Source of the DNA: Escherichia coli
GTDB lineage: Bacteria > Pseudomonadota > Gammaproteobacteria > Enterobacterales > Enterobacteriaceae
Length of the DNA stretch: 64,000 bases
NCBI RefSeq assembly: GCF_030013205.1
Contig: NZ_CP122648.1
Direction: 5' to 3' (one strand)
The position numbers and the translations under genes were made by a program. The notes under the pieces were generated by a model, which was not told the origin of the DNA, made no database searches, and worked only from the letters and a program-made list of their open reading frames with translations. The stretch's first letter is position 1, and each line of letters opens with the position of its first letter. Positions 46,659-50,493 of the stretch are shown here, in pieces.

Positions 46659-47846
<1,188 letters not shown>

Positions 47847-47886: not shown

Positions 47887-49320
47887 CTAATTGTTCTGGT
47901 AAATATCTTTATACAAACGGCTTTCAAAACGTACCAACGGAATACGGCGATTACGCTGATCCGCCGGTTCTACTGCATAGCCAGAAAGATATTGCACAAA
48001 CGCCATTCGTTGCCCGCTCGCTGTGGTAATGAATCCCGCCAGGTTATATACCCCCTGCAACGAACCGGTTTTCGCTGAGACTTTTCCATCCACGCCCGCC
48101 TGATGCAGACCTGCACGGTACTGCAAAGAGCCGTCATAGCCCGCCAGCGGCAGCATGGAGATAAAGTTAAGTTCATTGTCGTGTTGGGCAATGTATTGCA
48201 GCACCTGCATCATGGTGGCGGGGGCAATCAGGTTATGCCGCGAAAGCCCTGAACCATCGGCAATAATGGTGTTTCCAATATCGACACCGGCTTGCTGGCG
48301 CAGGATCTGACGCACGGCGTCCGACCCGGCCCGCCATGTTCCGGGCACATTGAAGCGCGCATGGCCTATCATGCGGAAAACCGTATCGGCGATCATGTTG
48401 TCTGACTTTTTCAGCATAATCTTAAGCAGATCGTGCAGCGGGGCCGACTGTTTACTGGCAACTACCGTTCCAGGTTCGTTAACCTGAGTCTGGCGCAGCA
48501 GTGTTCCGCTCCAGGTGATACCCGCCTGTTTTAACTCATCTTTCAGAATTGCCCCGGCATAGCTGGCTCCATCCTGCACGGCAAAAGCCAACGGGAGCGG
48601 CTCAGAACGTTGCGGCAGGCATCCCGTCAGCGTAAAGCGGTTCAGCTCGCCTGGTACGACATCCAGTTCGCAGTATTGCGCTTCGGCAGAACCACGGGGG
48701 AGGGTGCGTACCTGGCTGAACATCGTAACGGGGTAATAAGATGCCACGCGTATAAAAGCCATATCACCAGGTTTTGGGGCACTGTAGAGCGAGACGGAGA
48801 AACAGTTGCGGTCAACTATGGCGGCGGCAGGCGGAGCGCTAAAGCATTGTGTCATGTCATTCCATGGCCAGCCGGGGGCTTTATCGTGGCTGGCGAAAAT
48901 GGAGGTATCTATAAACACATTGCCATCGATTTGGTTGACGCCAGATTTTTTCAAAGTCGCGACCATATTGCGAATATCCTGACGTCTTAACGTCGGATCG
49001 GCACCAAATCGCGCCACTAAGTCACCCTTAAGTACGCCGTTTTCCACATTGCCTTTGGTTTCAAGCGTCGTGGTAAAACGAAAATCGGGGCCGAGTTGAA
49101 TCAACGCCGCCAGTGCAGTAATCACTTTCTGCGTACTGGCGGGCAGCGCCATCTGCTGACTGTGGTAATCAATAGCGGGGGCCGACGCGCCGACTTTTTG
49201 CACCATCAGGGCAAGGTTGGCACCAGCGGGGAGTTGAGTAATGTACTCATCAACATTTGCGGCCTGAACACTGAACGCTATACAGCTGGTCAATCCGATG
49301 ATAAATCTGGAAAATCGCAT
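47887..49320 (-). CDS. dacB: D-alanyl-D-alanine carboxypeptidase/endopeptidase PBP4
   Basis: 477 aa MRFSRFIIGLTSCIAFSVQAANVDEY...; SxxK active site STQK. Confidence 0.96.
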   Translation of the reverse strand: MRFSRFIIGLTSCIAFSVQAANVDEYITQLPAGANLALMVQKVGASAPAIDYHSQQMALPASTQKVITALAALIQLGPDFRFTTTLETKGNVENGVLKGDLVARFGADPTLRRQDIRNMVATLKKSGVNQIDGNVFIDTSIFASHDKAPGWPWNDMTQCFSAPPAAAIVDRNCFSVSLYSAPKPGDMAFIRVASYYPVTMFSQVRTLPRGSAEAQYCELDVVPGELNRFTLTGCLPQRSEPLPLAFAVQDGASYAGAILKDELKQAGITWSGTLLRQTQVNEPGTVVASKQSAPLHDLLKIMLKKSDNMIADTVFRMIGHARFNVPGTWRAGSDAVRQILRQQAGVDIGNTIIADGSGLSRHNLIAPATMMQVLQYIAQHDNELNFISMLPLAGYDGSLQYRAGLHQAGVDGKVSAKTGSLQGVYNLAGFITTASGQRMAFVQYLSGYAVEPADQRNRRIPLVRFESRLYKDIYQNN

Positions 49321-49435
49321 AATCTCGCGCTAACAACCTGGAATCGAGCCGTCATACTACGGCGCAACGCCCTATAAAGTAAACGATGACCCTTCGGGAA
49401 CTTCAGGGTAAAATGACTATCAAAATGTGAATTGT

Positions 49436-49476
49436 AGCTGACCTGGGACTTGTACCCGGGTCGGTATTTTTTTGCT
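49436..49476 (+). promoter_or_regulatory. greA leader terminator/attenuator (GraL-like)
   Basis: hairpin gacctgggacttgtacccgggtc followed by T7 run about 90 bp upstream of the greA ATG; consistent with the known greA leader RNA. Confidence 0.5.
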
Positions 49477-49567
49477 TCTGGTCCCGGTGAGGAGTTATGC
49501 CGGGCAGGCCGAACAGCCGGGGTGGGTGAAGACTTGCCCCATCAGGAATATTCAAGAGGTATAACAA

Positions 49568-50044
<477 letters not shown>

Positions 50045-50087
50045 GAATTACCCAATACTCAAGATGTTGATGTATTGTAAAGAAAGG

Positions 50088-50114
50088 AAAAAGGCCGCTA
50101 TGCGGCCTTTTATC
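50088..50114. terminator. bidirectional terminator between greA and yhbY
   Basis: aaaaaggccgctatgcggccttttat hairpin between convergent genes. Confidence 0.7.
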
Positions 50115-50199
50115 AACGAACAGAGCGTGGCATTTTGCTCTCCTGCCTGCGGAAAACCCCTCGTTTTACACAGCAAATGTGTGTAACTTTAGGATAATC

Positions 50200-50493
50200 T
50201 TAGCGTGGCAGCGAGATTTTACGTTCTTTAGTTGGGCGATAAAGCACCAGCGTTTTACCGATGACCTGTACATTACAGGCGCCGGTTTCGCGCACGATAG
50301 CTTCCACGATCAAGGTTTTAGTTTCGCGATCTTCGGTGGCGATTTTCACCTTGATGAGTTCATGGTGCTCTAACGCTTGTTCAATCTCGGCCAGCACCCC
50401 TTCGGTCAAACCATTACTGCCAAGCAGAACAACTGGCTTGAGCGGATGTGCCAGACCTTTCAGGTGCTGTTTTTGTTTAGTACTCAGATTCAT
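50200..50493 (-). CDS. yhbY: CRS1/YhbY-family RNA-binding protein
   Basis: 97 aa MNLSTKQKQHLKGLAHPLKPVVLLGSNGLTEGV... Confidence 0.95.
   Translation of the reverse strand: MNLSTKQKQHLKGLAHPLKPVVLLGSNGLTEGVLAEIEQALEHHELIKVKIATEDRETKTLIVEAIVRETGACNVQVIGKTLVLYRPTKERKISLPR

Follow-up and report, generated by a model that had tools for sequence, protein, structure and literature searches.

The greA promoter-leader region of an Escherichia coli chromosome and the GraL terminator within it

The DNA directly upstream of greA in the Escherichia coli chromosome analysed here is, with a probability of roughly 0.93, the greA promoter-leader region that encodes GraL, an intrinsic terminator and GreA feedback element. 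It was studied within a stretch of 64,000 nucleotides of contig NZ_CP122648.1 (assembly GCF_030013205.1), called the window below, and all positions are counted from the first letter of that stretch. The element is already known; it is a device of constitutive down-setting with factor-enhanced feedback, not a switch-type attenuator. Its anatomy, its identity to the K-12 sequence, its family membership and the covariation of its stem were established in the present analysis. For start sites, short transcripts, termination efficiency and GreA dependence, we rely on published work on the K-12 sequence, which is identical, and the present strain probably behaves as K-12 does. No sequence evidence contradicting the assignment to GraL was found.

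Locus and identity

The open reading frames of the window place the element in the order obgE (46674-47846, + strand), dacB (47887-49320, - strand), greA (+ strand, Table 1), yhbY (50200-50493, - strand), rlmE and ftsH. The K-12 MG1655 annotation of the aligned locus has the same gene order, with dacB and greA transcribed away from each other. The element lies on the same strand as greA, inside the dacB-greA intergenic region of 247 nt. The interval 49380-49567, which a sequence-only reading had described as a greA leader with an upstream GraL-type terminator hairpin, covers most of this region.

The name given to the leader in that reading is borne out by two comparisons. Rfam family RF01769 ("Enterobacteria greA leader") matches 49351-49472 on the + strand over its full length (positions 1-124 of 124) at 127.5 bits, against a gathering score of 60, with E = 1.5e-24. 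This is the sole significant Rfam match in 48800-50300, and no riboswitch family is among the five Rfam matches up to E = 1 in that interval. Moreover, alignment with K-12 MG1655 shows base-for-base identity over 49321-49488, a stretch with the two promoters, the complete hairpin and its U-rich tail.

The element is widespread within the species. The 247-nt intergenic region occurs at an identity of at least 95% in 5425 of 5426 complete E. coli genomes, and one complete genome of the 5426 gave no greA leader match. The leader matches in the E. coli collection amount to 5427; one of them is on a plasmid record, and at least one genome has two copies. The 59-nt GraL itself is at least 99% identical in 5106 of 5420 E. 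coli genomes. Many other complete E. coli genomes carry an allele of the intergenic region 100% identical to that of the window, and K-12 falls in the 99.2% identity band.

Two observations concern the wider neighbourhood. A perfect 10-bp hairpin (AAAAGGCCGC-uau-GCGGCCUUUU) is found on both strands at 50089-50111, where greA and yhbY converge. An A-run and a U-run flank it, one on each side, and it has the appearance of a bidirectional terminator shared by the two genes; its Rfam similarities (STnc540, STnc420) are below threshold only. In addition, a rimP leader (RF01770) and tRNA genes were found about 7 kb from the greA leader in four loci of other bacteria (L089, L025, L024 and L076: Dickeya, a Klebsiella-labelled isolate, Photorhabdus and Erwinia), which indicates that the synteny of the neighbourhood is conserved.

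Table 1 Features of the greA promoter-leader region in the window
Feature	Positions	Strand	Evidence
16-mer AAAGTAAACGATGACC, located before the greA start sites and ending in the -35-like hexamer of P1	49376-49391	+	Promoter scan
greA P2 (sigmaE) promoter, GGAACTT-N16-TCAAA	49397-49424	+	Perfect consensus match
greA P1 (sigma70) -10 hexamer, TAAAAT; P1 +1 is A49419	49409-49414	+	Promoter scan; +1 deduced
GraL RNA	49419-49477	+	K-12 identity; fold; transcripts shown in K-12
Terminator stem I, GCUGACCUGGG	49437-49447	+	Terminator scan; fold; covariation with stem II in 42 species
Terminator loop, ACUUGUA, 7 nt	49448-49454	+	Terminator scan; fold
Terminator stem II, CCCGGGUCGGU	49455-49465	+	Terminator scan; fold; covariation
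U-rich tail, A-U7-GCUU, zone of imprecise transcript release	49466-49477	+	Matches the published 'AU7GCU2' (PMC2836576)
Rest of the greA 5' UTR in read-through transcripts: G+C-rich hairpins, AGGA (49544-49547), Shine-Dalgarno sequence AAGAGG (49554-49559)	49478-49567	+	
greA coding sequence, 158 aa, leader-controlled gene	49568-50044	+	Open reading frame; greA in K-12 annotation

Promoters and start sites

In K-12, greA is transcribed from a pair of strong promoters that overlap, P1 (sigma70) and P2 (sigmaE); their starts were mapped 11 bp apart (PMC2836576). Both are recognizable in the window. The promoter scan reports a sigma70-like promoter with the -35 hexamer ATGACC at 49386-49391, a 17-nt spacer and the -10 hexamer TAAAAT. 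The sigmaE consensus GGAACTT-N16-TCAAA has its sole match in the 64-kb window here, compared with 0.02 matches expected by chance. The P1 start is placed at A49419 because the published coordinates, in which +19 is the first stem base (49437) and +59 the end of the U-rich tail (the end of GCUU, 49477), fit no other position (PMC2836576, PMC6829880). The same placement follows from the initiating dinucleotide ApU reported for P1, which matches A49419-T49420. For P2, the same paper gives ApA as well as the sigmaE consensus (PMC2836576); ApA matches A49430-A49431, and P2 +1 is A49430, 11 nt downstream of P1 +1. The arrangement of overlapping P1 and P2 with starts 11 nt apart is present here at the sequence level only. 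The hairpin had been proposed to lie between the greA promoters and the ribosome-binding site, and it does: the promoter elements are upstream at 49386-49424, and the Shine-Dalgarno sequence AAGAGG is downstream, followed by the greA ATG at 49568.

The sequence upstream of P1 contains further constant elements. The 16-mer AAAGTAAACGATGACC was the search pattern for the leaders of other species and is for that reason bound to be invariant in the 43 fetched leaders. The adjoining ATACTA block (49354-49359), in turn, is invariant in 44 leaders without having been selected for. Read on the - strand, 49378-49383 and 49354-49359 give TTTACT and TAGTAT, separated by an 18-nt spacer that is variable in sequence and fixed in length. 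These hexamers are plausible as the -35 and -10 elements of a candidate divergent promoter of dacB, whose ATG is at 49320; it would stand back to back with the -35 of greA P1, and with TAGTAT as its -10 the dacB start would be predicted near 49347. The candidate matches 8 of 12 consensus positions, which is under the promoter-scan threshold. AGTAAA (49378-49383) is constant in the 44 leaders but is part of the 16-mer search pattern.

The GraL terminator

The stem-loop noticed by the sequence-only reading, followed by T7, is present at 49440-49473. It consists of gacctggg (49440-49447), the loop acttgta (49448-49454) and cccgggtc (49455-49462), with one G.U pair (T49444.G49458). Three further pairs between GCU and GGU, two of them wobble, extend it to an 11-bp stem (49437-49447 with 49455-49465) containing 7 G-C pairs. 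Between this full stem and the T7 run (49467-49473) stands a single A (49466), and GCTT (49474-49477) follows the run. The terminator scan returned the same 11-pair stem and 7-nt loop, with a ATTTTTTTGC tail. A G+C-rich stem, a short loop and a U-run no more than 2 nt from the stem, here seven U after one A, make this an intrinsic (Rho-independent) terminator.

The 59-nt RNA from the P1 start to the end of the tail (49419-49477) folds with -21.4 kcal/mol, compared with -10.9 +/- 2.5 for shuffled sequences (z = -4.17), and none of 200 shuffles is as stable. Together with the Rfam E value, these figures indicate that the hairpin is more than chance.

The short leader transcript of 40-60 nt predicted by the sequence-only reading has been observed on the identical K-12 sequence, by Northern blot and by in vitro transcription. 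Potrykus et al. (2010) described RNA clusters of 50-60 nt from P1 and of 40-50 nt from P2, both with pure RNA polymerase and on in vivo Northern blots (PMC2836576). Taking the sizes from this K-12 work, the P1 form of GraL in the window is about 50-60 nt long and the P2 form, from 49430, about 40-50 nt, with 3' ends scattered over UAU7GCU2. Northern blots hardly detected the short RNAs when they were expressed from a single copy (PMC2836576).

Other structural readings of the hairpin were rejected. A stem extension pairing GUGAA (49426-49430) with UUUGC (49471-49475) appears in the minimum free energy (MFE) folds. It consists mostly of invariant A-U pairs, and its outer two pairs fail in 13 and 26 of 42 sequences. 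A role of the hairpin as dacB terminator was ruled out, as dacB is transcribed away from it; the terminator scan called no minus-strand terminator at the hairpin.

Conservation in Enterobacterales

For a comparison across species, the 16-mer AAAGTAAACGATGNCC, which lies outside the hairpin, was scanned in one genome per species. The scan returned 120 loci, and 43 of these were kept, namely those from Enterobacterales in which the 16-mer is followed by greA, in the same orientation, after 190-276 nt. They cover Enterobacteriaceae, Erwiniaceae, Pectobacteriaceae, Yersiniaceae, Photorhabdus, Morganella and Plesiomonas. In all loci except Morganella, a hairpin and then a U-rich run are found at a constant distance from the sigmaE -10 element.

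The terminator stem is kept by compensatory changes among enteric bacteria. In the 42-sequence alignment, 91.5% of the cells of the 11-pair helix are paired, and 8 of the 11 pairs have changed on both sides. Neither the observed covariation score nor the percentage paired is reached in any of 500 shuffles, and sliding the 3' strand by 1-3 columns brings pairing down to 34-60%. A previous comparison of four species had found that 17 of 18 stem substitutions preserve pairing (PMC2836576); the covariation in 42 leaders reproduces and widens that statement. RF01769 also scores above threshold in 15 of the 17 most distant loci, the two that fail being Morganella and Plesiomonas.

The tail is more variable. 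A-U7-GC was found only in E. coli, E. albertii and Citrobacter in the fetched sample. Most other aligned leaders have a U-tract with a C interruption, commonly U4-C-U4(-G), and Photorhabdus has a poor U-tract (AUUGUUUAUUG). Judging from these tails, imprecise termination may be specific to Escherichia and Citrobacter.

Termination and GreA feedback

In K-12, the efficiency of termination at GraL is about 66% in vivo; in vitro, in reactions of pure RNA polymerase free of ribosomes, it is about 60%. Termination is unusually imprecise, the 3' ends being spread over about 10 nt (PMC2836576). When the terminator was added to a P1P2-lacZ fusion, activity was cut about 3-fold (PMC2836576). A later study likewise gave termination of about two thirds, roughly constant through growth, and its authors found the element hard to class as attenuator or riboswitch (PMC6829880). 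In that study, Dylewski et al. (2019) reported that GreA represses its own expression independently of the promoter and that catalytically active GreA is required. More GreA led to more GraL, and GreA increases, rather than relieves, termination in vivo. Both +1 to +18 and the hairpin at +19 to +48 are required in cis for this autoregulation. It was not reproduced in vitro, and the missing factor is neither Hfq nor sigmaE nor one of the Nus factors (PMC6829880). As pure components fail to reproduce the effect of GreA, an extra factor would be needed.

Applied to the window, these data suggest the following course of events. Transcription would start at 49419 (P1, sigma70) and at 49430 (P2, sigmaE), from the overlapping promoters. 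Having gone no further than 18 nt (P1) or 7 nt (P2), RNA polymerase would make the 11-bp hairpin and the A-U7-GCUU tail. The intrinsic terminator would then release about two thirds of the transcripts as GraL of 40-60 nt, with 3' ends over about 10 nt, and the remaining third would read through into greA, setting greA expression at about one third of the promoter output. Catalytically active GreA would lower its own synthesis via the terminator in cis and thereby form a negative feedback loop in vivo. The released GraL may also act in trans on nudE mRNA, a reported effect that rests on overexpression.

The trans activity gives rise to another view of the locus, in which GraL is an independent small-RNA gene that regulates in trans and the lowering of greA by its terminator is incidental. 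For instance, GraL overexpression changed more than 100 transcripts and improved fitness in competition, and scrambled GraL had no effect (PMC2836576). The later study (PMC6829880) names nudE as a trans target, and the 18 nt before the stem are partly conserved in sequence. These conserved bases, however, overlap the sigmaE -10 element and the start sites, and their conservation need not mean small-RNA function. The cis role has also been shown directly, by the cut in lacZ activity and by the requirement of autoregulation for GraL in cis, whereas GraL supplied in trans had no effect on greA (PMC2836576, PMC6829880). Trans and cis roles are not mutually exclusive, and we consider it unlikely that the control of greA is incidental.

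Comparison with attenuators

The sequence-only reading had also suggested attenuation. What holds of this claim is that a premature terminator limits read-through into greA, as demonstrated in K-12; the mechanism of a classical attenuator does not hold. For the P1 transcript, the MFE structure and the centroid coincide in the terminator hairpin (ensemble frequency 0.51), and no mutually exclusive antiterminator was found in it. Neither a leader peptide nor a ligand-sensing domain was found, the one reading frame being an AUG-UGA start-stop (49425-49430). GraL is not a classical attenuator because it has no antiterminator or leader peptide. It resembles classical attenuators (trp-type leader peptides, T-boxes, riboswitches) in having an intrinsic terminator between promoter and coding sequence that limits read-through. 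It differs from them in that it has no alternative fold, leader peptide or ligand-binding domain, and in that GreA, its known effector, makes a terminator that is already working more efficient. GraL has also been compared with SreA of Listeria (PMC6829880), another leader RNA that terminates prematurely and reportedly acts in trans as well; SreA responds to SAM as a ligand-controlled riboswitch, whereas GraL is without a sensing domain.

An upstream antiterminator that competes with the terminator would nonetheless make the leader a classical attenuator. Naville and Gautheret state that antiterminators were found for the greA and rnk leaders (PMC2965389), and the consensus of RF01769, of which this survey of premature terminators is the apparent source, draws three 5' helices at positions 1-71, equivalent to 49351-49421 in the window. 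E. coli is able to form all 15 of their pairs. Positions 1-68 of the model, however, are DNA upstream of the mapped P1 start, so that only the last three bases of 49351-49421 are transcribed. In the 44 Enterobacterales leaders compared, compensatory changes are absent from all 15 pairs. Where the sequences vary, they do so on one side of a pair only, nearly always at the cost of pairing, with mismatches in 19 of 44 leaders at pair 2-39, in 21 at pair 42-47 and in 19 at pair 58-70. Even when 49351-49477 is folded as one RNA, including the untranscribed upstream 68 nt, the terminator hairpin stays intact in both the MFE structure and the centroid. With so few nucleotides before the stem in either transcript, and with the terminator hairpin as the predicted fold of the P1 transcript, a competing antiterminator is very improbable.

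The 5' helices were therefore rejected as RNA structure, given their lack of covariation and their position upstream of +1. The stretch 49351-49421 consists of invariant sequence blocks with variable spacers of fixed length between them, and this is the pattern expected of promoters. Most likely, the helices of the model represent conserved promoter DNA, and about half of the family model seems to be of this kind. They are outside GraL as experimentally defined. The leader matches RF01769 over the full length of the model, whose terminator helix is identical with the covarying one described above; the difference lies in the three 5' helices, which have no covariation support in the 44 leaders.

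Least likely of all, and by a reasonable estimate negligible, is attenuation coupled to translation of a leader mini-ORF (49425-49430, + strand), an AUG directly followed by UGA 7 nt from the P1 start: an AUG stands here in many aligned leaders, but it has no Shine-Dalgarno sequence, is missing from P2 transcripts (start at 49430), belongs to frames that vary in length or are absent in other genera (AUUG in Enterobacter and Kosakonia, AUAC in Serratia), owes its conservation to an overlap with the sigmaE -10 and start region, and would not account for the termination seen with pure RNA polymerase and no ribosomes (PMC2836576).

The remaining 5' untranslated region

As for the comparison with K-12 GraL (PMC2836576, PMC6829880), the locus is the same, in the same dacB-greA context, and the promoters, 11-bp stem, loop and AU7GCU2 tail are identical. 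The sole two differences in the intergenic region are downstream of these elements: position 49489 is G (A in K-12) and position 49540 is C (T in K-12). The G at 49489 is within a Shine-Dalgarno-like AGGAG, inside a predicted hairpin. The C at 49540 turns a predicted G.U closing pair with G49519 into a G-C pair. Both substitutions fall in a region that is dispensable for autoregulation: deletion of the 5' UTR downstream of GraL had no effect on GreA autoregulation in K-12, and the sequence beyond +59 was dispensable (PMC6829880). We infer that the two are neutral.

A uORF of 10 codons downstream of GraL (ATG at 49497), with the Shine-Dalgarno-like AGGAG only 2 nt upstream, was rejected. It is not conserved even in Citrobacter, lies inside a predicted hairpin and was treated as a chance occurrence.

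Motifs resembling CsrA sites were noticed in the leaders. Of 44 leaders, 36 have AGGA 22-27 nt ahead of the greA start codon; the E. coli copy (49544-49547) is at -24. Outside Enterobacteriaceae, 14 leaders have a 4-bp hairpin with a GGA loop (GUCA-GGA-UGAC; GUCAGGAUGAC), 43-56 nt ahead of the ATG (loci L034, L009, L068, L089, L078, L076, L035, L121, L064, L008, L065, L096, L024 and L044). The AUCAGGAUGAU version of it in Photorhabdus and Morganella is a compensatory change. This hairpin is absent in the E. coli leader. A whole-word literature search found no papers linking CsrA to greA, and in an E. coli table of CLIP-seq and ribosome-profiling results greA (b3181) is marked 'No' in all four flag columns and NS (PMC5694010). 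CsrA control of the greA 5' UTR was rejected for E. coli only, as greA is neither bound nor regulated according to that table.

Conclusions

How GreA acts on the GraL terminator has been addressed in the literature by the proposal of direct GreA sensing (PMC6829880). Along this line, one could speculate that the terminator is a direct sensor of GreA activity, with read-through set by polymerase backtracking and rescue on the unusually long A-U7 tract and without any RNA switch. Such behaviour, together with the 3'-end spread of about 10 nt, might then be specific to Escherichia and Citrobacter, a restriction suggested by the U-tract alignment. We hold this extension of the GraL assignment to be doubtful rather than probable.

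For the annotation of this strain, the value of the analysis is that GraL, as a cis- and trans-acting regulatory RNA, and two mapped promoters can be placed at exact coordinates. Moreover, according to the analysis, promoter DNA is probably what the 5' helices of RF01769 represent, and U-tract architecture varies between genera. What the element controls is the amount of GreA, a factor that acts globally in transcription fidelity and against arrest.
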